Origin: Candidatus Peribacteria bacterium RIFCSPHIGHO2_02_FULL_51_15
GTDB taxonomy: Bacteria > Patescibacteriota > Gracilibacteria > Peribacterales > Peribacteraceae
DNA length: 42,003 nucleotides
Assembly: GCA_001788965.1 (NCBI GenBank)
Contig: MFXU01000014.1
Span: 1 to 42,003, forward strand
Direction of reading: 5' to 3'
The first letter of the stretch is position 1; every line of letters begins with the position of its first letter. A program made the position numbers and the translations under genes. Under the pieces are notes generated by a model. The model ran no database searches and was not told the origin of the DNA. It saw only the letters and a program-made list of their open reading frames with translations. Shown in pieces: positions 57 to 38,075 of this stretch.

Positions 57-166
57 TTCGCGCCTGGGCTTGAATGGATAACACCCTGGCCGATAAATTC
101 GCGCCTGGGCTTGAATGGATAAAACCCTGGCCGATAAATTCGCGTCTGGGCTTGAAATCGAACAAG
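57..166. repeat. 41-bp tandem repeat, about 2.6 copies
   Basis: Unit TTCGCGCCTGGGCTTGAATGGATAACACCCTGGCCGATAAA at 57-97 recurs at 98-138 with 1 mismatch; a partial third copy starts at 139. Two GC-rich hairpins precede it (24-43 and 46-71). Confidence 0.8.
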
Positions 167-538: not shown

Positions 539-3244
539 TCACTGTACCTTGCCGTGGCATTTTTTGTATTTCTTTCCCGAGCCACAAGGACAGGGATCGT
601 TGCGCCCCACTTTCGTTCTGTGAGCTTCGGCGGGCAAGCGGTCAGCTGGCGCTTTTTCTTTGAGAACGCTGTCCGGTGCTACTGAATTTTTAAGGTTTAT
701 GCCCATTTGCGTGAGCTGACCTTCGATCTCGGCGGCATTGGTCTGAAGCGAGCCCGGGTCCTCATCGGCCGGCATTGGCGGCGGGGCCAGGAACTGGGCG
801 AAGTCGACCTGAAGCAAAGTCCGGACGGTGGTGGTCGCGATATCCGAGAGAAGTTTCTGGAACATGCGGAATCCCTGGTCCTGGTACTCGATCAGAGGAT
901 CGCGCTGGGCATAGCCGGAGAAGGCCACTTGCTCGCGGAGGTGCGACATTGCGTCGATATGGTCCATCCAATGCGAATCGATGGACTGCAAAACTATTAT
1001 CTGTTCGGCCTTCGAGACAGCCTCTTCGCCGAAGTGGCGGCATTTTTTTTGGTAAAACGACAGCGCCATCTCAGTTACCAGTTCTTTTACTTCTTCCGGT
1101 TCGGCCATGGAATTCAAGTCTTCGGTGGAGATCCCCTGAGCCAGCTGCGGATGTAGCGTTCCCAGGTTTTCGCGGAGTTTGTCGATCTGCCACAACTCAT
1201 GGTCGTTTCCGGAAACGCATTCATCGACGAAATTTCCAGCTTCCCGCCTGAGCATGGATATGACTTCATCCCGGATAGAATGATTCTCCCCGTTTTTACC
1301 ATCATCATTTTCATCTTTTTCCCCGGCGATTTTAATCAGGAGTTTTTGCCGCCGCTTGTACATTATTTCCCGATGCTTGTTCATCACGTCGTCGTACTGG
1401 ACGACGTGTCGGCGGATGTCGAAGTTGCGGCCTTCGACTTTCTTTTGCGCGCTCTCAATCGACCGCGACACCATGCGGTTTTCGAGCGGAACATCCTCTG
1501 GGACTTTCAGCCGCTGCATCATGGACTTCAGCCGGTCGCCGCCGAAAAGGCGCATCAGCTCGTCCTCCATCGAAACGAAAAACCGGCTTTCGCCCGGATC
1601 GCCCTGGCGGCCGGAGCGGCCACGGAGCTGGTTGTCGATCCGGCGGGCTTCGTGTCGTTCGGTGCCGAGTATGCAAAGGCCGCCGAGGTCTTTTACTTGA
1701 GCGCCCAGCTTGATGTCGGTGCCGCGGCCGGCCATGTTGGTGGCTATGGTTATAGCGCCGCGTGCCCCGGCTTTGGCCACTATCTCGGCTTCCTTCTCGT
1801 GGTGCTTGGCGTTCAGCACGGTGTGCGGGATCGTCATCTCGGTAAGAAGCAGGCTCATGGCCTCCGATTTCTCGATCGAGGTGGTTCCGATCAAAACCGG
1901 CTGGCCTTTTTCATATTTTTCTTTGGCGATTTTGGCGACGGCCTTGAATTTGGCGGCGACAGTCGCGTAAACCGCGTCGGGATTGTCCAGACGGATCATC
2001 GGTTTATTCGTGGGGATGACGATTACCGGCAGTTTGTAAATCGAGAGAAATTCTTCCTCTTCGGTTTTGGCCGTGCCGGTCATGCCGGCCAGTTTTTTAA
2101 ACAGCCGGAAATAATTTTGGAAGGTGATCGTTGCGAGAGTTTTGCTTTCGCGCTGGACCGGGACGTTTTCCTTCGCCTCTATGGCCTGATGCAGGCCGTA
2201 ACTGTATCTGCGGCCGGGCATCAGTCGTCCGGTGAACTCGTCGACGATTATCACTTCGCCCTCTTTCACCACGTAATCGACGTCGCGCTGGTACATGGCA
2301 TGCGCCCGGAGCGCTTGTTCGATGTGGTGTACTTCCTCGAACCCTTTGTCGGTGTAGATGTTTTCAATGCCGAGGAGCTCTTCCATTTTTTTGATGCCCT
2401 CCTCGGTCAGCGTCGCAGCTTTTTGTTTTTCGTCTTTTACGAAATGCGTGTGTTCCTGAAGCTGGTTCACATGTTTCGCGTAGAGCTGGTATTTCAAAGT
2501 GGATTCCTCGGCCGGCTGGCTGATGATGAGAGGCGTGCGGGCTTCGTCGATCAAAATCGAATCGACTTCGTCGACTATGGCGTAATCAAGTCCCCGCTGA
2601 ACCTGGCGATCCACGATACCGGACATGTTGTCGCGGAGATAATCAAAACCGAATTCGTTATTTGTTCCGTAGGTCACGTCGGCGCTGTAGGCCAGTTTCC
2701 TTTCCTGATGGTCCAGCCCGTGGACTATGGTTCCGACCGTCAATCCGAGCGTTTTATAAAGGATGCCCATCCATTCGCTGTCACGTTTGGCGAGATAGTC
2801 GTTTACCGTCACTACGTGGACTCCCTTGCCGGCCAGAGCGTTCAGGTAAACCGGCATCGTGCAGACCAGTGTTTTTCCTTCACCGGTTTTCATTTCGGAA
2901 ATCGCGCCGCGGTGCAGGACTATTCCGCCCAAAATCTGGACGTCGAAGGGGACCATATCCCATTTGATTTTTTGGGCGCCTGCTTCAAATTCTTGGCCGT
3001 AGATCAGTTCGCAGCCGCGCACCACGAGCGCGAAGGCTTCGGGCAGCAGGTCATCCACCGTTTCGCCCGAGCGGATCCGTTCCCTGAATTCCGCGGTTTT
3101 TTTCGGCAGATCTTCCAGTGTTAATTTTTTGAAGACGTCTGTCGCCCGGACGGCATTTACCTGTTCGACTTTCGGCCAGAGTTTCTTGAGCTCTTTTTCG
3201 TTGGGATCGCCGAGGATTTTGTTAAGCACTTCAATTATTCCCAT
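539..3244 (-). CDS. secA: Preprotein translocase ATPase SecA
   Basis: 901-aa ORF with MKTGEGKT Walker [30 protein letters not shown] and the C-terminal zinc motif [14 protein letters not shown]. Confidence 0.97.
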
Positions 3245-3520: not shown

Positions 3521-4174
3521 TCATCCGCCTCTGCCGTACCAGGGAGCAAGCGTTTTTTTCTGCCAGATACAATTTTTCAAGAGCGAAGGGAGAATATCGA
3601 CGACAGGAAGGAGGGGTTTCAGGGGCTTGAATGTTTTCAATATTTTTTTGTGTTCTTCGATCAACTCTCCGAGATAGCAATTCGCAATCAGCTTTTGGCT
3701 TTTGGCGACAATTTCATCAATCGAAATCAATGTGGGATCCGGCCATTCTTTTGAAAGTTCTCCAAATCCGCGGATGAAGAGGAGGTTTTTTTTGGTGGAA
3801 TGAAGCCATAAATAGCTATTAGCTATTAGCTTTTGGCTATTAGCCAATTGCCAATTACCAATTGCCGCTTCGGTTCTATAAAACCACAGATCACTCGAGT
3901 GGACCCCGGCGATTGGAATTTTCAAAGCCCAGCTCAGTGCGTTGGCCAGACTTATCCCGACTCTGAGGCTCATGAATCCTCCGGGGCCGGTGACGGCTAA
4001 AATATGCGTAAGGTCATCAAATCTCATTTTCTGCTTTTCCAAAAGGACTTTTAAAATCTCCACCAAGCGTTCTTCCGTATGGTCGTCCACTGCTGTTTGC
4101 GCTACGGTGCGTTCTTCACTTACGAGCGCGAATTTTTTTTCGGAGCCGGCCAGGTCGATAAATAAAACTTTCAT
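3521..4174 (-). CDS. tsaB: tRNA t6A biosynthesis protein TsaB (YeaZ family)
   Basis: 217-aa ORF. The N-terminal MKVLFIDLA... and VTGPGGFMSLRVGISLANAL are typical of YeaZ/TsaB. It carries two in-frame heptamer-word tracts (3677-3713, 3812-3866). Confidence 0.8.
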   Translation of the reverse strand: MKVLFIDLAGSEKKFALVSEERTVAQTAVDDHTEERLVEILKVLLEKQKMRFDDLTHILAVTGPGGFMSLRVGISLANALSWALKIPIAGVHSSDLWFYRTEAAIGNWQLANSQKLIANSYLWLHSTKKNLLFIRGFGELSKEWPDPTLISIDEIVAKSQKLIANCYLGELIEEHKKILKTFKPLKPLLPVVDILPSLLKNCIWQKKTLAPWYGRGG

Positions 4175-4175
4175 G

Positions 4176-4266
4176 AATTGCTAAATGGCTAAATTGTTAA
4201 ATTGTTAGCAAGCAATAACATGCCGACTCACTTGTGAACAATTCAACAATTTAACAATATAACAAT
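4176..4266. repeat. Octamer-word palindromic element (arms AATTGYTA x4 / inverted arm)
   Basis: Left arm 4176-4209 is aattgcta aatggcta aattgtta aattgtta. Right arm 4236-4266 is gaacaattcaacaatttaacaatataacaat. It fills the divergent tsaB/GT2 intergenic region. Confidence 0.8.
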
Positions 4267-4280
4267 CTATCGCAATTCCA

Positions 4281-5228
4281 ATGCCGAATCCAAAGCTTTC
4301 AGTAGTGATTCCCACCTATAAACGCGCGGAAACTCTCAAGCAGTGCCTGGAGCATCTTTCAAAACAAACCGTCGCCAAAGAGATGGAGGTGATTGTCGTG
4401 AGCGATGGACATGATGAAAAGACGGCGGTACTTCTGGATAAGTATCGAGTATCAGGTATCGAGTATCAGGTATCGGGGGAAAGTGAATGGCCTTTTCAGA
4501 TAAGATTTTTTGAAATAGAAAAAACTCAGCAGGGGAAGGCCAGGAACGAAGGAGTGAAAATCGCCGAAGGAGACATTGTTTTATTCATCGGCGATGATAT
4601 TTTTCTGGCGCCCGATGCCTGTGAGCGGCATTTGAAAGCCCACGAGAAAAGCTATGAGCTACTTGCTATGAGCGATGAGAAAAAAGAAAGGCTCAAAGCT
4701 CAAAGCTCAAAGCTCAAAGCTGTACTGGGGTACACCACCTGGGACCCTGCCGTCGGCATCACGCCGGTGATGAAGTGGCTGGAGACCTCCGGATGGCAGT
4801 TTGGTTACCTCATGATCGAGCCTTATAAAAATTCATTCGTCCCTGCCGGTTTGCAGCACAAATTCACATATACGAGCAATATCAGTCTGCCACTCGAGAT
4901 CGCTAAAAACTTCCCGTTTCGCACGGATGTTCACCTCTATGGCTGGGAGGACATCGAGTGGGGATTGCGTTTAAAAGACGCCAGTGTACGGCTGTTTTAT
5001 GAACCGGAAGCCAAAGCGTTGCACCATCACCGGATGACGCTTGAAGATTCGCTTAAGCGGATGGAAACCTTGGGTCAGTCGGTTAAAGAAATCGAAAAAA
5101 TTGTTCCCGGATTTGACCGTAGACCTCGGGGCATCAAATTATTTCTTTATAGGATTGCAGCGCTGATGCCGACGATGGCGGGGAGGCATAGAAAGGGATT
5201 TTTGAAGGGACTTGACAGTAAAATATAA
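4281..5228 (+). CDS. Family 2 (GT-A) glycosyltransferase
   Basis: 315-aa ORF with LSVVIPTYKRAETLKQCLEHL...VIVVSDG and IGDDIF motifs. Heptamer-word tracts lie in frame at 4442-4476 and 4650-4721. Confidence 0.85.
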   Translation: MPNPKLSVVIPTYKRAETLKQCLEHLSKQTVAKEMEVIVVSDGHDEKTAVLLDKYRVSGIEYQVSGESEWPFQIRFFEIEKTQQGKARNEGVKIAEGDIVLFIGDDIFLAPDACERHLKAHEKSYELLAMSDEKKERLKAQSSKLKAVLGYTTWDPAVGITPVMKWLETSGWQFGYLMIEPYKNSFVPAGLQHKFTYTSNISLPLEIAKNFPFRTDVHLYGWEDIEWGLRLKDASVRLFYEPEAKALHHHRMTLEDSLKRMETLGQSVKEIEKIVPGFDRRPRGIKLFLYRIAALMPTMAGRHRKGFLKGLDSKI

Positions 5229-5344
5229 TAGTGAGAAAATTCTTTTCCTTTCTCAATATTTCATTTACAATCCCCAATTTTTTTTATGTTAACAAAAGAG
5301 CATTTGGAAGATAGGGTTTTATCTCGTGCACAAGATGTGTGTAA

Positions 5345-5479
5345 TACCACTTCGCGTTTAAAACGTTCTTAATCAGACGCGCTGGCGGTATGGAGTTCTT
5401 GGCTTGAGTAAACGCTACGCGGTACGAGATGATGCCGTTACGAATGACCGATTAGTTATGTTTTAAATGCAAAATGGTA
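5345..5479. mobile_element. 135-bp MITE, copy 1 (identical to 33176-33310), flanked by TAA/TAA
   Basis: Identical by eye to the second copy. Imperfect 20-bp TIRs (TACCACTTCGCGTTTAAAAC / RC TACCATTTTGCATTTAAAAC). 3-bp direct repeats TAA at 5342-5344 and 5480-5482. Confidence 0.75.
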
Positions 5480-5615
5480 TAAGCTGGTCGATTACGGGAA
5501 CTTTGATAAAGCGGCAGAGTGCCGGTCTAGACTTAGCAATGAGGATAAGGTCATTTTTTTAAAAATCGCTCCAAATCCTTCTCCCCAGCAAGAAGCAGCC
5601 GAAGCTGGAGTTCAA

Positions 5616-6607: not shown

Positions 6608-7843
6608 ATGCGTGCCTCATTCATTGCCGCAATAAATCAGCTCTGTTCCGAACGGAATGTTAAGCCAGACGACGTGCTGGAAGCCGTACGCCAGGCCATC
6701 GCCACCGCGTACCGCAAAGACTTCGGAAACAAGGAACAGGAAATCAGGGTCGTGCTTCGCGAGGATCAGGACATGCCCACGGTGCTTCTGATCAAGGAGG
6801 TCGTGGATGACGTGCTTAACGAAAACTTCGAGATCAGCGTGAAAGATGCGAAGCGGGTGAAGCCCGATGCCGAGATCGGCGATGAGATCGAGATCGATGT
6901 CACTCCGGTCGGTTATGGCCGCATCGCGGCTCAGGCGGCCAAGCAGGTGATAATACAGAAACTGCAGGAATCGGAGAAGAAGAGCCTCTTCGAGATGTTC
7001 AAAGACCGGGAAAATGAATTGCTGACGGCCAACGTGACCAAGGTGGAACCGAACTGGGTTACTTTGGAAGTCGAAGGCATGACGGTATCGCTGCCGTGGA
7101 AAGAGCAGATACCGGGCGAACACTATTACACCGGCAAGCGCTTGCGAGTTTACTTGGATAAAGTCGAGCTCACCGGCAAAGGTCCGCAGCTCAGGATCTC
7201 CCGGACGCATTCCAATCTGGTAAAGAAACTGCTGGAACTCGAGATCCCCGAAATCCGGAACGGCGACGTCCAGATCATGGCTATTGCCCGGGATGCAGGG
7301 ATGCGTTCCAAGGTCGCGGTGAAGAGCAATGATCCGCGGATCGACCCCATCGGCGCCTGCGTCGGACAAAAAGGCGTGCGCATCCAGGCGGTAATGGAGG
7401 AGATAAACGGCGAAAGAGTCGACATGATCGAGTGGTCGGACGATCCGATCAAATTGATTTCGACGGCTCTGCAACCGGCTTCGATCTCGGCGGTGATAAT
7501 CGTAAACGCGGAATCCCATGCCGACGAGGACGGCCGGCTGGTCAAGAAACGCGCGGCGGTTTTCGTCGAGGAAGCCCAGCGGCCGATGGCCATCGGAAAG
7601 AAAGGCCAGAACATCCGGCTTGCCACCCAGCTGACCGGGTTCGAGCTGGATATGTACAACTATGAGGAATTGCCGGCGTTCAAGGCGAAGCTGGCCGAGC
7701 TTCGGGGCGAAGAAGTGGCGGTGGCGGTTTTGAATGCGCCGGCAGAGGAAGAAGGGCAAGAGGGCAAAAAGGCAAAAGGGGAAGAGGAAGAGCAGCCCAC
7801 TATCGAAGAAGCGTCAGGTGAAGAGAAGAAGGAGGCAGCTTGA
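6608..7843 (+). CDS. nusA: Transcription termination/antitermination factor NusA
   Basis: N-terminal domain, S1 domain and two KH domains (GACVGQKGVRIQAV, GKKGQNIRLATQLTG), plus an acidic C-terminal tail. ATG 6608 is preferred over the in-frame GTG 6581. Confidence 0.93.
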   Translation: MRASFIAAINQLCSERNVKPDDVLEAVRQAIATAYRKDFGNKEQEIRVVLREDQDMPTVLLIKEVVDDVLNENFEISVKDAKRVKPDAEIGDEIEIDVTPVGYGRIAAQAAKQVIIQKLQESEKKSLFEMFKDRENELLTANVTKVEPNWVTLEVEGMTVSLPWKEQIPGEHYYTGKRLRVYLDKVELTGKGPQLRISRTHSNLVKKLLELEIPEIRNGDVQIMAIARDAGMRSKVAVKSNDPRIDPIGACVGQKGVRIQAVMEEINGERVDMIEWSDDPIKLISTALQPASISAVIIVNAESHADEDGRLVKKRAAVFVEEAQRPMAIGKKGQNIRLATQLTGFELDMYNYEELPAFKAKLAELRGEEVAVAVLNAPAEEEGQEGKKAKGEEEEQPTIEEASGEEKKEAA

Positions 7844-12060: not shown

Positions 12061-12151
12061 ATGTGGTAACAAAATTAAGTATAGATTTTAACATGGCAGA
12101 AGGACAGAAGTGAGTTTTTTTTCTTCGTAAAATGCGGGTTGCCCCGCATTT

Positions 12152-12585
12152 ACGCCTGTACTTCGTACGCCGGATTCTGTCCGGCTTCGTCCGCCCGAGG
12201 CGGACTACGCCGAGATGACCATCTATCTGGCCCGCGGATATTCTCAGCGGATCTACCCCACTTCGCCTTTCGGCTTCGCGGGGATTAGCGGAGGGGTGGC
12301 CGGAGCGACGGAATCATCGCTTGATCTGACCACCCAAATCCTCCTTGCAGCACCTAGAAGTTTGCCGTGATGCCCCGGATTCCCCGGGGCCAACCCCGCA
12401 CGCACGAGTGCTGCGGGGACGTTTCATATCATCCGCCTGAGGGCGGACTGCTCGTCTCTGTGGCACTTGTCCGCATGCAACTTTACCGGATATATGTTGC
12501 ATGGGTGGGCGTTACCCACTAGGCATTCCATTGCTGTCCGGACGTTCCTCCCCGCGGAAGCGGGGCGGTCATCTAAAGAACAGGA
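12152..12585 (-). ncRNA. rnpB: RNase P RNA, bacterial type A
   Basis: The minus strand reads ...AGAUGACC GCCCCGC UUCC GCGGGG AGGAACGUCCGGACAG (P2, P3, P4 5' strand) and ...GACAGAAUCCGGCGUA (P4 3' strand, bulged U geometry preserved). P1 is CCUGUUCUUU/GAAGUACAGG. A terminator-like hairpin lies at about 12128-12150. Ends are approximate. Confidence 0.85.
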
Positions 12586-15895: not shown

Positions 15896-15931
15896 AAAGG
15901 CAAAAGGTTTACGTTTTGCCCTTTTGCCTTT
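15896..15931. repeat. Small palindrome AAAGGCAAAAGG ... CCTTTTGCCTTT
   Basis: Perfect 12-bp inverted repeat between the two pilin genes. Confidence 0.6.
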
Positions 15932-15950
15932 TTTCCTTTTTGCCCTGATC

Positions 15951-16613: not shown

Positions 16614-16691
16614 AAATTGTTAAATTGCTAAAAATGCAGGAAATGCGCCTTTCGCTTGCGAACAATTTAGCAATTTAACAATTTAGCAATT
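16614..16691. repeat. Octamer-word palindromic element
   Basis: AAATTGTTAAATTGCTAAA (16614-16632) is perfectly complementary to TTTAGCAATTTAACAATTT within the right arm 16661-16691. The ~26-nt centre ends in CGCTTGCGAAC. Confidence 0.85.
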
Positions 16692-17372: not shown

Positions 17373-17495
17373 GATTGCTAAATTGTTAAATTGCCAAATT
17401 GTTTAACAGGAAACAACGCATGTTTCACTTGCCTGCCCACCGAAGCCTTGGCGAAGGTGGGCGAACAATTTAACAATTTAGCAATATAACAATTC
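17373..17495. repeat. Octamer-word palindromic element
   Basis: The left arm gattgcta aattgtta aattgcca aattgttt and the right arm gaacaatttaacaatttagcaatataacaattc share a 20-bp perfect inverted repeat. The centre contains the hairpin GCCCACC...GGTGGGC. Confidence 0.85.
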
Positions 17496-17526: not shown

Positions 17527-18054
17527 TCAGTTGCATAAAGAGAAGGAGGGAACTTCCTGCATCGATGTGATAAGCGTTTTGGGAAGTATCTGGTCGATGG
17601 CTGTTTCCAGACGACGGGTTACGTCGCCCGAAATGCCAATGGTGCATAGATACCTGTCATTGTTTCCAGTGCCGCTTATCAAAAGGATGCCGCACCGTCC
17701 CTTAGGCGAATCCAGCGTGACGTTTCCCGGGTAATTCGGCGACTCTCTAAGCCTGAGCAACGCATATTCGGTGCAAGCCTGAGCTTCTGCCATGGCCTGC
17801 TTGGATTGCTGCACCGAAAGCGAGACCTGATTGGCCGATATGCCGAGCAGCAGCAGTGTGGAGAGGACCGCCGAAGCAATGGCTCCGATGACGACGATCG
17901 AGATCAGGAGGATATAGCCGGGCGAAGACAATTGACCCGCCTTCGCCCCGGCAAGCCAGGGGCTATGGCAGGGCAGGCAATTGACAATTGACAATTGACA
18001 ATTTTTTGAATTTTCCCTGGGTGGAGGCCTTCTGAAAATTATCAATTTATTCAT
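17527..18054 (-). CDS. PilX-like pilus-associated protein (N-terminal hydrophobic helix)
   Basis: Hydrophobic segment GYILLISIVVIGAIASAVLSTLLLLG followed by a ~110-aa domain. The first 41 codons run through the CAATTGA heptamer tract (17978-18003). An in-frame TTG at 17931 is a plausible real start. Confidence 0.55.
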   Translation of the reverse strand: MNKLIIFRRPPPRENSKNCQLSIVNCLPCHSPWLAGAKAGQLSSPGYILLISIVVIGAIASAVLSTLLLLGISANQVSLSVQQSKQAMAEAQACTEYALLRLRESPNYPGNVTLDSPKGRCGILLISGTGNNDRYLCTIGISGDVTRRLETAIDQILPKTLITSMQEVPSFSLCN

Positions 18055-23135: not shown

Positions 23136-23339
23136 GAAAGTGCTCACTGACCTTGCGGCCATTCGCCCTCACTCCGGCGCTGCGACGCCACCTCTCTCCC
23201 GATGGGGGAGAGAGGAATCCGTATCACACTTCATTCGGAGGTGAAGCGAAGCTCCCCTCTCCCGAGCCGCAGCGGGAGAGGGGCCGGGGATGAGGCGACA
23301 AGTTTAGCGACACCTCCTACAAGGTCAGTGAGCAGTTAC
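23136..23339. mobile_element. MITE copy B (inverted relative to A and C; TSD ACATGCAG)
   Basis: Right TIR perfect; left TIR GAAAGTGCTCACTGAC has 2 mismatches. 8/8 direct repeat ACATGCAG at 23128-23135 and 23340-23347. The interior is the reverse complement of copies A/C. Confidence 0.85.
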
Positions 23340-23405
23340 ACATGCAGGAAAGTAAGGGAGGTAAGGAAAGGCTTCAATAAACTTCTCCCAACTGATAAAC
23401 TCCCA

Positions 23406-25019
23406 ATGCCAATGCCCCGCTCTTCGTCTTCACCGCATCGACGTGCCCTGATATCGGTATTCGACAAAACCGGCATCGTCGATTTTGCGGCCTCGCTTCA
23501 GGCGGCGGGATTCCAGATCATATCTACCGGAGGAACGCAGCGAGCCCTGGAGGAAGCCGGAATCACGGTATTGAACGTCGAAAAATTAACCCAATTTCCG
23601 GAATGTTTCGGCGGGCGGCTGAAAACCATCCATCCGCTCGTAGCCGGCGGGATTTTGTACAAACGGGATGAAGAGGAGCAGGTCGCGGAGGCAAAAGAGC
23701 TGGGCATCGAGCCCGTAGACGTAGTGGTTGTAAATCTGTATCCCTTTGCCGAAACAGTCGAAAAATCCGGCTTTAAGCCGGCTCCTGGCGCCGCATTGCC
23801 CGAGGAAGTCATCGAGCAGATAGACATCGGCGGACCGATGCTTCTCCGGAGCGCGGCAAAAAATCACCACACCGTCACCGTCATCTGCGATCCGTCGGAC
23901 TACGCCGAAGTTGCCTCTCAAATAAAAGAAAAAGGAGACACTGCCGTCGAATTTCGCAGGGAACTGGCGGCGAAAGTTTTCGCTCACACGTCAGCGTACG
24001 ATTCTTTGATAGGGGAATATCTTTCGGGCGGGAAAACTGCGGGCGTTATGCTGGATAACCGCCGGACATTGAGGTACGGGGAAAATCCCCATCAGACGGG
24101 AGTTTTCTTCGATGTAATGGCACATGTAACGTTGAATCAAGAATCAAGTAATAAGCCAAAAGCCAAAAGCCAAAAGCCAAAAGCCTCTCAGTGGAAGCAA
24201 TTACAAGGCAAAGATCTGAGCTATCTGAATATTCTCGATGCCGATGCCGCCTGGCGGATGGCGATGGATTTTTCGCCGCCCACTGCGGTTTTTGTGAAGC
24301 ATGCCAATCCCTGCGGCATCGCTTCGCATGAAAAAATAGAAGAAGCGTTCCAGCGCGGTTATGACACGGACAGGCTTTCGGCTTTCGGAGTCATCATTGC
24401 CATTAACAGAAATTGTTCTGCTGAAATCGCGAAAAAAATCATCGACCAGAAAATATTCACCGAGGTCATCCTCGCGCCTTCGTTTGAACCCGGCGCCCTG
24501 GAGCTTCTCAGGCAAAAGCCGAACATCCGGGTACTGTACATGGACGGTACGGTTTTTTCCGGCGAGCCGGTTTACCGGTCGGCTTTCGGCGGCATGCTGG
24601 TTCAGGACGAAGATACGAAACAAGTGACGGCCGGGGATTTGGTTTGCGTAACCGAAAAAAAACCGACCCCGAAACAGACAGATGATCTTTTGTTTGCCTG
24701 GAAAGTGGTGAAACATGCCAAGTCGAATGCGATTGTTTTGGCCAAAGATCAGGTGAGCATCGGTATCGGCTGCGGACAGACCAGCCGGGTGGATTCGACG
24801 CACATCGCTCTCAGGCGGGCGGGTGACAGAGTCAAAGGAAGCGCTCTCGCGAGCGACGCATTTTTCCCGTTCCCGGATTCAATCGAGGAAGCGGCCAAGC
24901 ACAGCATCAGCGCCGTGATCCATCCGGGAGGATCGATACGCGACAAAGAGGTTTTCGCGAGAGCCGATGAGCTGGGGCTGGTGATGGTCGTAACTGGTAT
25001 ACGTGGATTCCGACATTAA
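23406..25019 (+). CDS. purH: Bifunctional AICAR transformylase / IMP cyclohydrolase PurH
   Basis: RALISVFDKTGIVDFA...STGGT (MGS-like domain), YGENPHQ, and the AICARFT C-terminus ending GGSIRD...VTGIRGFRH. ATG 23406 was chosen; the ORF-track start 23202 lies inside MITE B. An in-frame heptamer tract lies at 24134-24185. Confidence 0.95.
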   Translation: MPMPRSSSSPHRRALISVFDKTGIVDFAASLQAAGFQIISTGGTQRALEEAGITVLNVEKLTQFPECFGGRLKTIHPLVAGGILYKRDEEEQVAEAKELGIEPVDVVVVNLYPFAETVEKSGFKPAPGAALPEEVIEQIDIGGPMLLRSAAKNHHTVTVICDPSDYAEVASQIKEKGDTAVEFRRELAAKVFAHTSAYDSLIGEYLSGGKTAGVMLDNRRTLRYGENPHQTGVFFDVMAHVTLNQESSNKPKAKSQKPKASQWKQLQGKDLSYLNILDADAAWRMAMDFSPPTAVFVKHANPCGIASHEKIEEAFQRGYDTDRLSAFGVIIAINRNCSAEIAKKIIDQKIFTEVILAPSFEPGALELLRQKPNIRVLYMDGTVFSGEPVYRSAFGGMLVQDEDTKQVTAGDLVCVTEKKPTPKQTDDLLFAWKVVKHAKSNAIVLAKDQVSIGIGCGQTSRVDSTHIALRRAGDRVKGSALASDAFFPFPDSIEEAAKHSISAVIHPGGSIRDKEVFARADELGLVMVVTGIRGFRH

Positions 25020-28314: not shown

Positions 28315-29163
28315 ATGAGGAAGACCACAATGAAGATGCGGCAATTTAAAAAATCCTTAGTGCTTATTCCCAAGGGCCAGGTGCGAAAAGAAGTACTGAA
28401 GCTTAGTAAGTGGCAATCGAGAATCGTTCTGGAGCCGGGATCGAAGGCAACCATTTTCGAGCGTGATATTTTCCCGTCGTCGGGGGGAGAGAAACGCGGT
28501 CCATTCGATGTCGATGTGACCATCGGCGAAAGAGCGGAACTCCATTATGTCGTCCTTGTAAATGGCGGGGAGGGGACTTCGAAGATCAGGCGTCGGAGCA
28601 CAGTGGAAGAGGGAGGTGTTATGCACTGGCACATCGTCACTCTCGGCGGGCATGGCGACCGGCATGAGCTCGTTTCGATGCTGGCAGGGAAGAACGCGAC
28701 GAGTTCCATCGATTGGATATTCTTCGTCTGCGGTGATGAGAAGCAGTGCGTCTCGGCATGCATGGTTTTCGCGGCTCCGGGCGGGAGAGGGGAGATCACG
28801 ATGAAAGGAATCGCGCAGGACCATGGATATATTCAATGTGACGGGAGGATCGAGATCTCGGAGCGGGGGAGCGGAGTCGAAACCTTTTTGACCCAAAAGT
28901 TTTTATTGCTCGATCCGACGGCGAAGATAGACGCGGTCCCGGCGCTGAAGATAAAAACCGACAATGTGAAAGCCAGCCACTCGGCGACGGTGTCGCGCGT
29001 GACGCCCGATGATCTTTTTTATATGAAATCGCGCGGGCTGGATGAATCTTCGGCCAGGAAAATGTTCGTCGAAGGATTTTTATCCGATCTCACCGAAAAA
29101 CTCCCGGATGAGCTGATCCGGGTGAAGATATTGGGGGCGATAAGGGAAGCGTACGAGCGATGA
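28315..29163 (+). CDS. sufD: Fe-S cluster assembly protein SufD (short form)
   Basis: 282-aa ORF with the SufBD C-terminal block KIDAVPALKIKTDNVKASHSATVSRVTPDDLFYMKSRGLDESSARKMFVEGF. Confidence 0.85.
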   Translation: MRKTTMKMRQFKKSLVLIPKGQVRKEVLKLSKWQSRIVLEPGSKATIFERDIFPSSGGEKRGPFDVDVTIGERAELHYVVLVNGGEGTSKIRRRSTVEEGGVMHWHIVTLGGHGDRHELVSMLAGKNATSSIDWIFFVCGDEKQCVSACMVFAAPGGRGEITMKGIAQDHGYIQCDGRIEISERGSGVETFLTQKFLLLDPTAKIDAVPALKIKTDNVKASHSATVSRVTPDDLFYMKSRGLDESSARKMFVEGFLSDLTEKLPDELIRVKILGAIREAYER

Positions 29164-29372
29164 GCTATGAGCTTAGAGCGATGAGCCAAAAAAATCCCCG
29201 TTTGGCGCGTTCAATCATCGAGCGAATGGATCCGGAGTTGATTGCCGATCAGCAGACACGCAAAGAGCGGGGGTTGCCGATGGAAAAAAATTTGTTAATT
29301 ATTCATCCTTCCGAAGGCACCGAATTCGTTCCATTGGCTCAAAGAAAAACTGAATTAAAAAGCCTTCAATAA
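29160..29372 (+). CDS. Hypothetical small protein (70 aa), doubtful
   Basis: ORF overlapping the sufD stop by 4 nt (ATGA). Its first codons run through the heptamer word tract 29155-29187. No recognisable family. Confidence 0.25.
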   Translation: MSYELRAMSQKNPRLARSIIERMDPELIADQQTRKERGLPMEKNLLIIHPSEGTEFVPLAQRKTELKSLQ

Positions 29373-29704: not shown

Positions 29705-31257
<1,553 letters not shown>

Positions 31258-31549: not shown

Positions 31550-33106
31550 ATGCAGATATCACATCAAGACCGGCGCACACTCCCCTGGCTCGCTATCGTT
31601 TTTTGCGTATTGATTCTGGCTTTGATTTTGGGAGGACTGAGTGAGCCTGTGTCGTTTGACGACAGCCTACGGCATTTCATGATGGGAAAGCTGATGGCGG
31701 CGAGGGGAATCCTCGGCTTACGCGGCTGGAGCGAATGGTTTTTCGCCGGTTATCTTTTCGAACATCCGGTGGATCCGTGGTTCTTGTCCAACGTGCTTTA
31801 TATGCCATTTACCGGTTTCCCGATTGCCCAGGGTTTGCACCTTTATGCCTTGTTTTCCATAACCTTCCTCGCTTTTTGTTTTGTGCTGATACTGAAAAAC
31901 CTGGAGGTCAACCCGGTCATCTCCTCGTTGCTTGTTCTGCTTTTGATATTCGGCCATGAAGGCTTCCTTTTCAGGCTGCTTATCGCCAGGCCTTTTACCG
32001 TCATCACGGCGCTTACCGTACTTTTGATGCTGTTTATAATAAAAAAGAAAAATATCCCGGCGGGGATAACCATGGTTCTTCTGGTCATGCTTTCCCATAT
32101 TTTCGTTTTCCCGCTGGGAGTCGCTTTGATCGGCGTCTTTTTGTCGTATATGAATAAAAACAAACAAAAGAGCCTTTCGCTTTTTGCCGCCGTTTCGGTC
32201 GGCACTTTAGTCGGATTTTTTCTGCATCCGGAGCCGATCGAGTACCTGAAATATATGGGACTGGTTTTCTTCAGGACGCCATTCATGAATTTCCCGGACC
32301 GCGCCACCGAACTAAGCGGGGGACTGGGTGAAGGGGGGATTATTTTCGTAATTACAGCCGTGATAGTTTTGTTGCATTTTTTGATTATCTTTAACCGAAA
32401 AGTAAGACAGAAGGATCTTTTTGTTTTGCTGTTCCTGGACTTTGTCGCGGTTTTTTTCCTGGCCCAGTTTATGCTCTGGGCCAGATCGATGGATTTTCTT
32501 TGGCCGGCGCTGCTGGTTTTGGCCGGTTGGCTGACCACATACTTTGCGGATCCTTTCGGGAAGCTGAGTGAGCTGTTTTCCCAAAAAAGGCACGCTATCG
32601 GAGCTCTGACCGCAGCCTTCACCTTGTTTGTGTGTTTCGTTTCGACGGTTCCGCTGGCGCTCGCCATTAATTTTTCGGACAAGAACCACTCACTGAATTT
32701 TTATAAGCAGGCATTCGCCAATGTGGAACCTAGCGCGCGCATACTTCCGGTTCGATGGGATTGGTTCTCGCCGTCGGTGGCGGTGCGGCCGGATCTCAAA
32801 TACGCCCGAGGAATCGATCCGCTTTTCGATTACGCTTCAAACTCCGGAGCGTACGCCCTGATGGCCGCGGTATTCCCGACGCGTTTTCCGGAAACGCGGC
32901 AATACATCGATGCCGAAGGCTGGCTGGAAGCTTCACTAAAAGTTTATCCGTCGGACTATCTGATGCTTTCGGCCGAGCGCTATGCGCCGATCATCAAATC
33001 GATAAAAAAGCTCGGGTATGAGGATGTGTCACAGAGCGAGAAATGGGCGGTGTTTGACGTTAAAAAAATAAATGGATTGGGCGATAAATCGAAAAAGTCT
33101 GAGTAA
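31550..33106 (+). CDS. Polytopic membrane protein, possibly a GT-C-fold glycosyltransferase
   Basis: 518-aa ORF with about 11-13 hydrophobic segments, an acidic motif in the first loop (SFDDSLRH) and a soluble C-terminal ~150 aa. The functional call is weak. Confidence 0.7.
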   Translation: MQISHQDRRTLPWLAIVFCVLILALILGGLSEPVSFDDSLRHFMMGKLMAARGILGLRGWSEWFFAGYLFEHPVDPWFLSNVLYMPFTGFPIAQGLHLYALFSITFLAFCFVLILKNLEVNPVISSLLVLLLIFGHEGFLFRLLIARPFTVITALTVLLMLFIIKKKNIPAGITMVLLVMLSHIFVFPLGVALIGVFLSYMNKNKQKSLSLFAAVSVGTLVGFFLHPEPIEYLKYMGLVFFRTPFMNFPDRATELSGGLGEGGIIFVITAVIVLLHFLIIFNRKVRQKDLFVLLFLDFVAVFFLAQFMLWARSMDFLWPALLVLAGWLTTYFADPFGKLSELFSQKRHAIGALTAAFTLFVCFVSTVPLALAINFSDKNHSLNFYKQAFANVEPSARILPVRWDWFSPSVAVRPDLKYARGIDPLFDYASNSGAYALMAAVFPTRFPETRQYIDAEGWLEASLKVYPSDYLMLSAERYAPIIKSIKKLGYEDVSQSEKWAVFDVKKINGLGDKSKKSE

Positions 33107-33368
33107 TTGTTAAATTGTTAAATTGCTATATTGCTATATTGTTTGCATGCATCGAATTTAGTTTGTGCCTGCTGATACCACTTCGCGTTTAAAACGTTCT
33201 TAATCAGACGCGCTGGCGGTATGGAGTTCTTGGCTTGAGTAAACGCTACGCGGTACGAGATGATGCCGTTACGAATGACCGATTAGTTATGTTTTAAATG
33301 CAAAATGGTATGACAATATGGCAATATGGCAATATGACAATATGACAATATGACAATATAACAATTTG
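33105..33368. repeat. Octamer-word palindromic element with a nested 135-bp MITE
   Basis: Left arm 33105-33141 is aattgtta aattgtta aattgcta tattgcta tattg. Right arm 33312-33368 is gacaatat ggcaatat ggcaatat gacaatat x3 aacaattt. The MITE sits in the loop. Confidence 0.85.
33176..33310. mobile_element. 135-bp MITE, copy 2 (identical to 5345-5479), flanked by TGA/TGA
   Basis: Identical sequence by eye. 3-bp direct repeats TGA at 33173-33175 and 33311-33313. Confidence 0.75.
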
Positions 33369-33431
33369 TTACGGCTTGACTGAATTCAGACGTAAATCCG
33401 AATTTGTTGAACCATTAATTCCAATTTTCAA

Positions 33432-33460
33432 TTGTCAATTGTCAATTCTGTCGTTATAGT
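33432..33460 (+). promoter_or_regulatory. Predicted rpsF promoter (TTGTCA-17-TATAGT)
   Basis: TTGTCA at 33432-33437 (part of the CAATTGT heptamer tract), a 17-nt spacer, and TATAGT at 33455-33460, 88 nt upstream of the rpsF ATG. Confidence 0.45.
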
Positions 33461-37756: not shown

Positions 37757-37978
37757 AAGGAACCTCTGAATAATTGTTAAATTGTTAAATTGTTAAGTTG
37801 TTAAGAATGTATAAAACGTGCGTTACGCTTGCGACCTTCGGCCAGCTCAGGTCGCCCGGAATGACACAGATGATTGTGCCAGATAAGGTCGCCCTGAGTT
37901 AAGCGAACGGGCGAACAATTTAGCCATTTAACAATTATGTCAGGGTAACAATAAAAAGCAGTTAATCAGAGGTTCCTT
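37757..37978. repeat. Octamer-word palindromic element nested inside a 13-bp outer inverted repeat
   Basis: The outer inverted repeat is AAGGAACCTCTGA (37757-37769) / TCAGAGGTTCCTT (37966-37978). The inner arms are aattgtta x3 agttgtta (37772-37805) and gaacaatttagccatttaacaatta (37913-37937). Confidence 0.8.
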
Positions 37979-37980
37979 AA

Positions 37981-38048
37981 GTATCAAGTATTCAGTATCG
38001 GGTATCCCGGATGATCGGCGGTCATACTCAATACTTGATACCTGATAC
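37981..38048. repeat. Heptamer-word palindrome (GTATCAA GTATTCA GTATCGG ... inverted arm)
   Basis: Left arm 37981-38006 and right arm 38026-38048 share GTATCAAGTATT in inverted orientation, immediately upstream of yebC. Confidence 0.75.
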
Positions 38049-38075
38049 TTTTTTAATGGTGTACAATTTCGATGC

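Follow-up and report, generated by a model that had tools for sequence, protein, structure and literature searches.

The stretch of DNA analysed here, called the window, consists of positions 1 to 42,003 (42,003 nt, forward strand) of contig MFXU01000014.1 from assembly GCA_001788965.1, and it carries tandem arrays of 7-nt units inside conserved protein genes. Its host is a groundwater member of the Peribacteraceae (Peregrinibacteria, candidate phyla radiation, CPR) with a streamlined genome that is about 90% coding. Named homologues of its family-2 glycosyltransferase (GT2), as found by protein search, belong to Candidatus Peribacteraceae and Peregrinibacteria. Three genes that contain such arrays are tsaB, GT2 and purH (Table 1). 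The first two are adjacent in nearly all relatives sampled, purH is conserved across relatives too, and gene order is kept in relatives both around purH and around tsaB-GT2. The longest open reading frame (ORF) at purH (605 aa) includes a spurious N-terminal extension of 70 aa (23202-23411) that has no counterpart in any homologue. The window further encodes sufD, whose identity was confirmed with Pfam, a pilX-like gene, 16S rRNA, RNase P RNA and tRNA-Thr.

The original prediction, made from the letters of the sequence, had listed seven tracts of tandem heptamers and placed them in intact reading frames. All seven were found where it put them and are reported by Tandem Repeats Finder (TRF), which was used for array detection. 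Exact tandem runs in the window were counted and compared with 30 dinucleotide-preserving shuffles, and they exceeded the shuffles only at periods 7 (five runs against none), 8 (six against 0.07), 14 (three against none) and 11 (one against none). With up to two mismatches allowed, the window holds seven period-7 segments, six of which lie within or overlap ORFs, and nine period-8 segments, seven of which are intergenic; at least five word families are used within the 42 kb. The frames are intact across the tracts of tsaB, GT2 and purH, all identified with Pfam, but the claim failed for the pilX-like and sufD tracts. Orthologues of the pilX-like gene begin about 10 residues before a conserved GYILLISI and the CAATTGA array lies upstream of that point; the array probably belongs to the 5' leader or to an N-terminal extension peculiar to the lineage. 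Assembly artefacts can be ruled out as the source of the tracts: over the tsaB-GT2 region five independent ENA assemblies are at least 99.9% identical with zero gaps, and no indels appear where Logan contigs from eight runs of several studies cross or reach the tracts. The locus was found in 19 sequencing runs, always as contigs and thus at consensus level only.

In the three genes the tracts lengthen the encoded proteins. Between ENPHQ and WKQLQGK, PurH has 18 aa more than its closest relative P0002 (76% identity) and 16 aa more than the M. tuberculosis enzyme (3zzm), which agrees with the roughly 15 extra residues, relative to E. coli PurH, that the original prediction gave for this segment. 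This loop carries independent insertions in other relatives as well, and comparison of the purH insertion with L087 revealed no evident target-site duplication or local seed sequence. In an AlphaFold2 model of PurH built on a shallow alignment, the predicted local distance difference test score (pLDDT) of residues 209-258 is below 50 and the insert (around residues 240-257) is coil. TsaB hot spot A contributes about 16 aa beyond the shortest TsaB in the orthologue alignment. Among the peptides read from the tracts are NKPKAKSQKPKAS in PurH, LKAQSSKLK in GT2 and IGNWQLANSQK in TsaB. The words also recur outside genes: the GTATCAA family of GT2 hot spot 1 builds the intergenic hairpin at 37981-38050 as well, and CAATTGA occurs both at 17975-18005 and at 33419-33450. 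GCCAAAA, for which the same had been claimed, is shared only loosely, through the 8-mer variant TTTTGCCC at 15914-15946. The idea that nucleotide repeats of an intergenic type end up as extra peptide in the proteins is supported. The 3' part of nusA contains a period-8 array, AAGGGCAA (7752-7780), which is the complement of the TTTTGCCC repeated intergenically 8 kb away.

GT2 hot spot 2 is a composite, with a left arm of degenerate AGCTATG (4650-4680) and a right arm of GCTCAAA x4.4 (4691-4721). The minimum free energy (MFE) of its RNA (83 nt, 4644-4726) is -29.8 kcal/mol, and the left arm is broken at the very position where a perfect row of AGCTATG units would give TGA. The composite AGCTATGAG ... 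GCTATGAGC ... CTCAAAG x4 is found in GT2 of the window and also in the PurH loop of L086, a different species with a PurH of 66% identity. TsaB hot spot B is orthologous and still periodic in L090, L092 and L091 (TsaB identity 60-73%). The short GGCTTTC array in purH is a tentative long-range partner of the GCCAAAA array and may be due to chance; its best match of 15/21 stays below the threshold of 16/21.

The intergenic examples in the window fold as long, almost perfect hairpins whose arms are the periodic arrays. Repeats of the AACAATTT type stand in sense orientation 1-11 nt from the ATG of tsaB and of GT2. Among the orthologous tsaB-GT2 intergenic regions, 21 of 48 distinct ones are 7- or 8-periodic with other words, most of them visibly as inverted pairs. 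A Shine-Dalgarno-like motif was present within 40 nt before the start codon of 1/25 window genes; the leaders are pyrimidine- and A-rich, and the 3' end of the 16S rRNA (near 29705) reads ...GGAACATCTCCTTA rather than the usual ...GGATCACCTCCTTA.

Table 1. Genes with heptamer tracts, and periodic elements in genes and between them. Positions are those of the window.
Feature	Position	Strand	Description
tsaB	3521-4174	-	identified with Pfam
family-2 glycosyltransferase (GT2)	4281-5228		identified with Pfam
purH	start 23412	+	535 aa, identical to cluster representative P0001; Pfam and homologues
tsaB hot spot A	3810-3866	-	sense GCAATTG GTAATTG GCAATTG GCTAATA GCCAAAA GCTAATA GCTAATA GCTATTT, encodes AIGNWQLANSQKLIANSY, directly before conserved WLHS
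tsaB hot spot B	3677-3713	-	five units, sense GCCAAAA GCCAAAA GCTGATT GCGAATT GCTATCT, encodes AKSQKLIANCY, before conserved GELI
GT2 hot spot 1	4442-4476	+	GTATCGA GTATCAG GTATCGA GTATCAG GTATCGG, encodes YRVSGIEYQVSG
GT2 hot spot 2, composite hairpin	4650-4724	+	encodes SYELLAMSDEKKERLKAQSSKLKA
purH loop insertion	24134-24187	+	GAATCAA x2, GTAATAA, GCCAAAA x4.7, encodes NQESSNKPKAKSQKPKAS, between ENPHQ and WKQLQGK
GGCTTTC x2.3	24373-24388	+	in invariant PurH motif RLSAFG; near-complement (6/7 per unit) of the GCCAAAA array 185 nt upstream
CAATTGA x3.7	17975-18005	-	5' part of the longest pilX-like ORF
GAGCGAT/GAGCTAT array	29153-29189	+	overlaps the last sufD codons and supplies the TGA stop; mostly downstream non-coding
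inverted 8-mer array pair	4176-4267	.	AATTGCTA/AATTGTTA and AACAATTT; fills the divergent tsaB-GT2 intergenic region
8-mer-armed hairpin	16614-16691	.	AATTGTTA family, between two minus-strand genes; MFE -30.5 (96 nt)
8-mer-armed hairpin	17373-17494	.	around G+C-rich inner hairpin CCCACCGAAGCC...GGTGGG; MFE -47.0 (136 nt)
intergenic complex	33105-33450	.	AATTGTTA/AATTGCTA array 33105-33143; copy of a 137-bp element 33172-33311; TATGACAA x7 at 33309-33365; heptamer array CAATTGT at 33419-33450
nested intergenic hairpins	37772-38050	.	8-mer arms 37772-37804 and 37921-37936 around G+C-rich hairpins
heptamer-armed hairpin	37981-38050	.	GTATCAA GTATTCA GTATCGG / ATACTCA ATACTTG ATACCTG, then a T run

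Loci of relatives were collected by protein searches and a metagenome scan, and 639 kb of Peregrinibacteria loci (reached via GT2 and PurH relatives) were compared with PurH loci of other phyla, 1.34 Mb in all, as controls. Distinct arrays of period 7 (TRF score at least 44) number 11.1 per 100 kb in Peregrinibacteria versus 0.74 in the controls, and period-14 arrays, made of alternating heptamers, 5.8 versus 1.8. Period-7 arrays are a trait of the whole phylum, and a strong period-8 class (19 per 100 kb) is particular to the lineage of the window. Array length is small and varies little (median 31 nt, interquartile range 27-33), and the median number of units is 4.4, with a maximum of 6.6. 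By a crude ORF caller they are about four times denser in intergenic than in coding DNA (4.4 versus 1.08 per 10 kb). A reverse-complement partner (at least 16/21) within 400 nt was found for 31 of the 76 distinct arrays (~40%), compared with 0 for reversed and 3 for complemented controls, and the gaps between inverted partners are mostly 0-50 nt. Arrays more than 400 nt apart share words (at least 6/7) in 13% of pairs within a locus versus 4.7% between loci.

The sense consensus is free of stop codons in 52/60 coding arrays, where 63-69% would be expected, and both strands are stop-free in 33/60 coding versus 6/28 intergenic arrays. The near confinement of the AATTGTTA 8-mer family to intergenic DNA can be explained by such a stop filter, as its TAA is read on both strands. 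Summed contig depth is 36-650 at the tracts versus 5-15 in their flanks, dozens of other contigs match a tract alone, and one contig at the depth of the genome has an exact 42-nt match to an intergenic array. The words are multi-copy in the source metagenomes, where they recur at many other places; the copy number per genome is derived from metagenome contigs and not from a closed genome. Heptamer arrays in Peregrinibacteria or elsewhere in the CPR were not reported in any paper that a literature search retrieved. Twelve proteins of Ca. Peribacter differ among five strains by indels of tens of bp (PMC4736985), which may be related to heptamer arrays.

Within genes the arrays keep to a few places. 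Orthologue alignments show two variable sites each in TsaB and GT2. When the period-7 and period-14 arrays of orthologous genes were mapped onto the window proteins, 36/37 GT2 arrays fell at residues 52-74 or 125-146 and 22/24 TsaB arrays at residues 101-118 or 157-164, with more than 30 different words in use at these hot spots. The tracts had been thought of as simply lineage-specific insertions, which does not hold, as arrays with different words occupy the same TsaB and GT2 loops in about half of the sampled Peregrinibacteria. Some GT2 and TsaB orthologues have no insert at all, and in L116 (TsaB at 1514-2617, minus strand) hot spot A takes a complete DUF559 endonuclease-fold domain in frame (Pfam PF04480, E = 2e-25); the sites are evidently permissive. 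L134 has a non-periodic insert of 70 aa at TsaB hot spot A. In the closest relative, L090, this site is not periodic in heptamers and carries a codon-based CCCAAC/CCTAAC (Pro-Asn) repeat, so a period-6 repeat is possible in this loop too. Inserts of a second kind were seen in the PurH loop (P0105, P0024) and at TsaB hot spots (L119, L123, L155, L129), consisting of G+C-rich palindrome-like sequence read as PLP...GEG and of arrays such as CGGGGGAAAGGGGG.

The recurrence of the arrays at the same sites across the phylum, with different words, could mean that they are functional nucleic-acid elements even within genes, either hairpins or rows of protein-binding sites that tune mRNA stability, translation rate or co-translational folding. 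Cold-shock and S1-type proteins have sites of about 7 nt. Selection would then act on periodicity and pairing and not on the peptide. In line with this, synonymous positions keep the periodicity, around 40% of arrays have complementary partners, and GT2 hot spots 1 and 2 are complementary to each other in L096, L103 and L109. Moreover, arrays abut the start codons of tsaB and GT2 in many lineages, 24/25 window genes are without a Shine-Dalgarno motif, and a similar leader role is proposed for TAACTGA repeats (PMC4679880). However, many orthologues have no arrays, and the same loops also accept non-periodic inserts, even a whole DUF559 domain. The purH tract is without a local partner and has essentially no predicted structure (MFE -1.8 kcal/mol), and the two GT2 hot spots share words directly, not inverted, in L116 and are unrelated in the window. 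Molecular drive alone can yield the concerted evolution described below. Overall, a functional role of this kind is the main rival to the explanation proposed below and seems rather unlikely. A conserved mRNA stem between GT2 hot spots 1 and 2 was considered and rejected; the pairing is limited to three lineages, is absent in the window, and the words in L116 are direct.

Units of an array change together, and do so at the DNA level. TsaB hot spot A has a periodic array directly before WLHS in 15/31 lineages. Unit identity is 71% within an array versus 28% at the same position between lineages, and in control windows taken from the same genes it averages 26%, with 45% as the maximum. Related lineages use GCTAATA (window), GCTCATA (L092) and GCTTGTN (L091) at this site; at hot spot B the window has GCCAAAA/GCTGATT and L091 alternates GCTAAAA and GCTATAA. 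The same substitution is seen in neighbouring TsaB units of different codon phase, once as a synonymous CTA/CTC change and in the next unit as Asn/His. Selection on the peptide cannot produce concerted change of units across codon phases; such change requires unit-to-unit homogenisation or selection on the nucleotide periodicity.

These observations bear on the alternative that selection favours a repetitive peptide, for instance a linker or a coiled coil, and produces the periodicity as a side effect. Three heptamers make 21 nt, or seven codons, so that long arrays would give heptad-like peptides, and the tract peptides are hydrophilic and of low complexity. Yet 4-5 units encode at most about 1.5 peptide periods, and the recurrence of one nucleotide change in different codon phases includes synonymous sites. 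Identical words occur in non-coding hairpins and shuffles yield essentially none, which speaks against peptide selection as well as chance, and the agreement of independent assemblies speaks against an artefact. For practical purposes all three origins are refuted.

No variant in unit number was found in the five assemblies or in the contigs of the eight runs, and therefore the tracts are not phase-variation switches; the earlier preference against contingency switching is upheld. If the tracts were contingency loci, cells of the population that gained or lost one 7-nt unit would turn tsaB, GT2 or purH off or on. Since 7 is not a multiple of 3, slippage by a single unit would shift the frame, and concerted evolution implies some turnover of units over evolutionary time. 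The uniform length, found in runs from several studies, counts against such switching, as do the short (4-5 units), degenerate arrays with their narrow size distribution and the fact that the host genes are housekeeping genes. We regard it as very improbable.

We propose that the tracts belong to modules resembling the short tandemly repeated repetitive (STRR) sequences of cyanobacteria. Disordered loops would tolerate these modules as in-frame insertions, and a process at the DNA level would preserve their periodicity; we give this explanation a probability of roughly 0.6. The modules (about 31 nt, 4-5 units, 7-nt period) form a phylum-wide class with intergenic DNA as its main habitat, where they make up hairpin arms and also stand directly before start codons, in a genome almost without Shine-Dalgarno motifs. 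Copies would arise in, or land in, coding DNA and survive there only if their net length is divisible by 3, no sense frame contains a stop and the site is a structurally permissive surface loop. Surviving copies would be carried in frame as low-complexity loop insertions, selectively near-neutral for the protein. Periodicity would be maintained by homogenisation of the units, for which slippage that preserves the frame, gene conversion between units and template switching are candidates; an array would thereby endure although its word drifts in all units together. The earlier view of neutral or structural insertions was broadly right and left out hairpin pairing, the phylum-wide hot spots and the concerted evolution at the DNA level.

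Several points weigh against this explanation. Firstly, about half of the lineages have retained arrays at the same sites despite a streamlined genome, which is more than simple neutral tolerance predicts and could indicate a function or a site-specific generating process. Secondly, the complementary GT2 hot spots of L096, L103 and L109 lie 135-177 nt apart and would form a long-range mRNA stem. Thirdly, translation of the tracts as part of the proteins is presumed, and a look for RNA runs gave none. Lastly, outside the window coding and intergenic DNA were told apart with the crude ORF caller, and the consensus sequences that gave no unit-number variant may hide rare ones.

The persistence at fixed sites would have a different cause if Peregrinibacteria possessed a dedicated process for writing such modules (about 31 nt, 7-nt period) at defined sites and keeping them there, as functional strand-specific signals. 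We consider this quite unlikely. Candidates for the process would be replication or repair that is prone to slippage or template switching, or a nuclease system of Y1/DUF559 type. If such a process existed, the modules could be rows of ~7-nt sites for cold-shock or S1-type proteins, or hairpins; the arrays would stand in for Shine-Dalgarno initiation in leaders and modulate translation or mRNA fate in essential genes. Persistence in the same loops across the phylum would then reflect selection and not tolerance.

Heptamer arrays of comparable layout have been described in other bacteria. According to PMC4679880, the TAACTGA repeats of 'Maribeggiatoa' consist of tandem 7-nt units with 2-6 copies per array, are numerous in the genome and mostly intergenic, and often lie a few nt from start codons without a Shine-Dalgarno motif; they occur in Beggiatoaceae, cyanobacteria and Bacteroidetes, and some arrays overlap stop codons or lie in ORFs. 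Nostoc also carries heptamer repeats (10.1101/2022.06.06.494920). The arrays described here share with STRR and TAACTGA repeats the 7-nt unit, the short array (median 4.4 and at most 6.6 copies), the dispersed and mostly intergenic distribution in many copies, the occasional overlap with stop codons or ORFs and, for tsaB and GT2 of the window, the position 1-11 nt from the start codon. They differ in their words: in STRR and TAACTGA systems a genome has a single fixed word or a few of them, whereas dozens of words that change between lineages are found here. In-ORF copies of 'Maribeggiatoa' are mostly at protein termini and inverted pairing is the exception (one indirect repeat), in contrast to the internal enzyme loops with recurrent sites and the ~40% of paired arrays in Peregrinibacteria (PMC4679880). 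The host phylum here also belongs to the CPR, and concerted evolution can be demonstrated.

The RNase P RNA of the window (12151-12584, minus strand; Rfam RF00010, 122 bits) exceeds the model by about 67 nt, and its peripheral helices contain inserts of 14-36 nt. STRRs are also found within the RNase P RNA gene of heterocystous cyanobacteria, but an insertion of this kind was rejected for the window, where the extra segments are no heptamer arrays.

Rickettsia palindromic elements (RPEs) are 100-150 bp long and have a family consensus without a short-period internal repeat; they were reportedly described by Ogata et al. in Science in 2000 as in-frame hairpin repeats in conserved protein genes that leave the fold undisturbed. 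Like RPEs, the tracts are inserted in frame in conserved genes at permissive sites, as seen from intact ORFs, variable loops and the low pLDDT (<50) in PurH. Unlike RPEs, they are modules of about 30 nt (hairpins 60-90 nt) built of 7-nt units, with concerted word turnover and no fixed consensus, and among the in-gene tracts only GT2 hot spot 2 folds strongly (-29.8 kcal/mol, compared with -1.8 kcal/mol for the purH tract). Repetitive extragenic palindromic (REP) sequences and REPINs are likewise short repeats, single or as inverted doublets, that form hairpins in many copies (31/76 arrays are paired here), but REPs lie outside genes and lack a tandem period; they are mobilised by RAYT (REP-associated tyrosine, Y1) transposases.

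A RAYT gene (NCBIfam NF047646, 91.4 bits, cut-off 80) is located at 4241-4690 of L081, just upstream of window position 1; it is present in L081 and L083 and absent in L082. It is flanked by direct duplications of about 210 nt with G+C-rich palindromes and a 41-nt tandem repeat, which also occurs at window 57-156. RAYT was considered as a mobiliser of the arrays and rejected, because its flanks consist of these G+C-rich palindromes and the 41-nt repeat and not of heptamer arrays; no link was established. A dispersed element of 137 bp with ATACCA...TGGTAT termini is found at window 5344-5480 and 33172-33311, and also at contig ends in several assemblies; it matched no Rfam family. Gene content varies 3' of the copy that ends at 5480, with PhdYeFM/ParE in the window and L081 and HicA with other small ORFs in L082. 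The difference between assemblies downstream of this copy suggests a variable cassette site.

Two further systems place tandem repeats inside reading frames. The repeats of Borgs lie in ORFs, have units that are all divisible by three and are nearly all unique within a genome (PMC9879509). The tracts resemble them as fast-evolving in-ORF tandem repeats that add disordered low-complexity segments without breaking the frame, but their unit is 7 nt, the frame is kept by total length alone, and the words recur. With the contingency loci of Haemophilus and Neisseria they have in common in-frame repeat units that are not multiples of 3. They differ from these in the absence of unit-number polymorphism from the five assemblies and the contigs of eight runs, in their short degenerate arrays, and in residing in housekeeping genes and not in surface or restriction-modification genes.

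Repeats with units that are not multiples of 3 are usually taken as errors or switches when found in essential genes, and here they are neither. The tracts are long-lived in-frame passengers, and possibly signals, whose periodicity is kept while word and peptide drift. Heptamer-repeat biology is thereby extended from cyanobacteria and Beggiatoaceae to the CPR. Since the arrays break short-k assemblies and inflate variation in protein length, they affect annotation and orthology calls in CPR metagenomes. They also offer a natural experiment on how a drive at the DNA level makes disordered segments, on which enzyme loops tolerate these, and on repeat families in the tiny genomes of the CPR.

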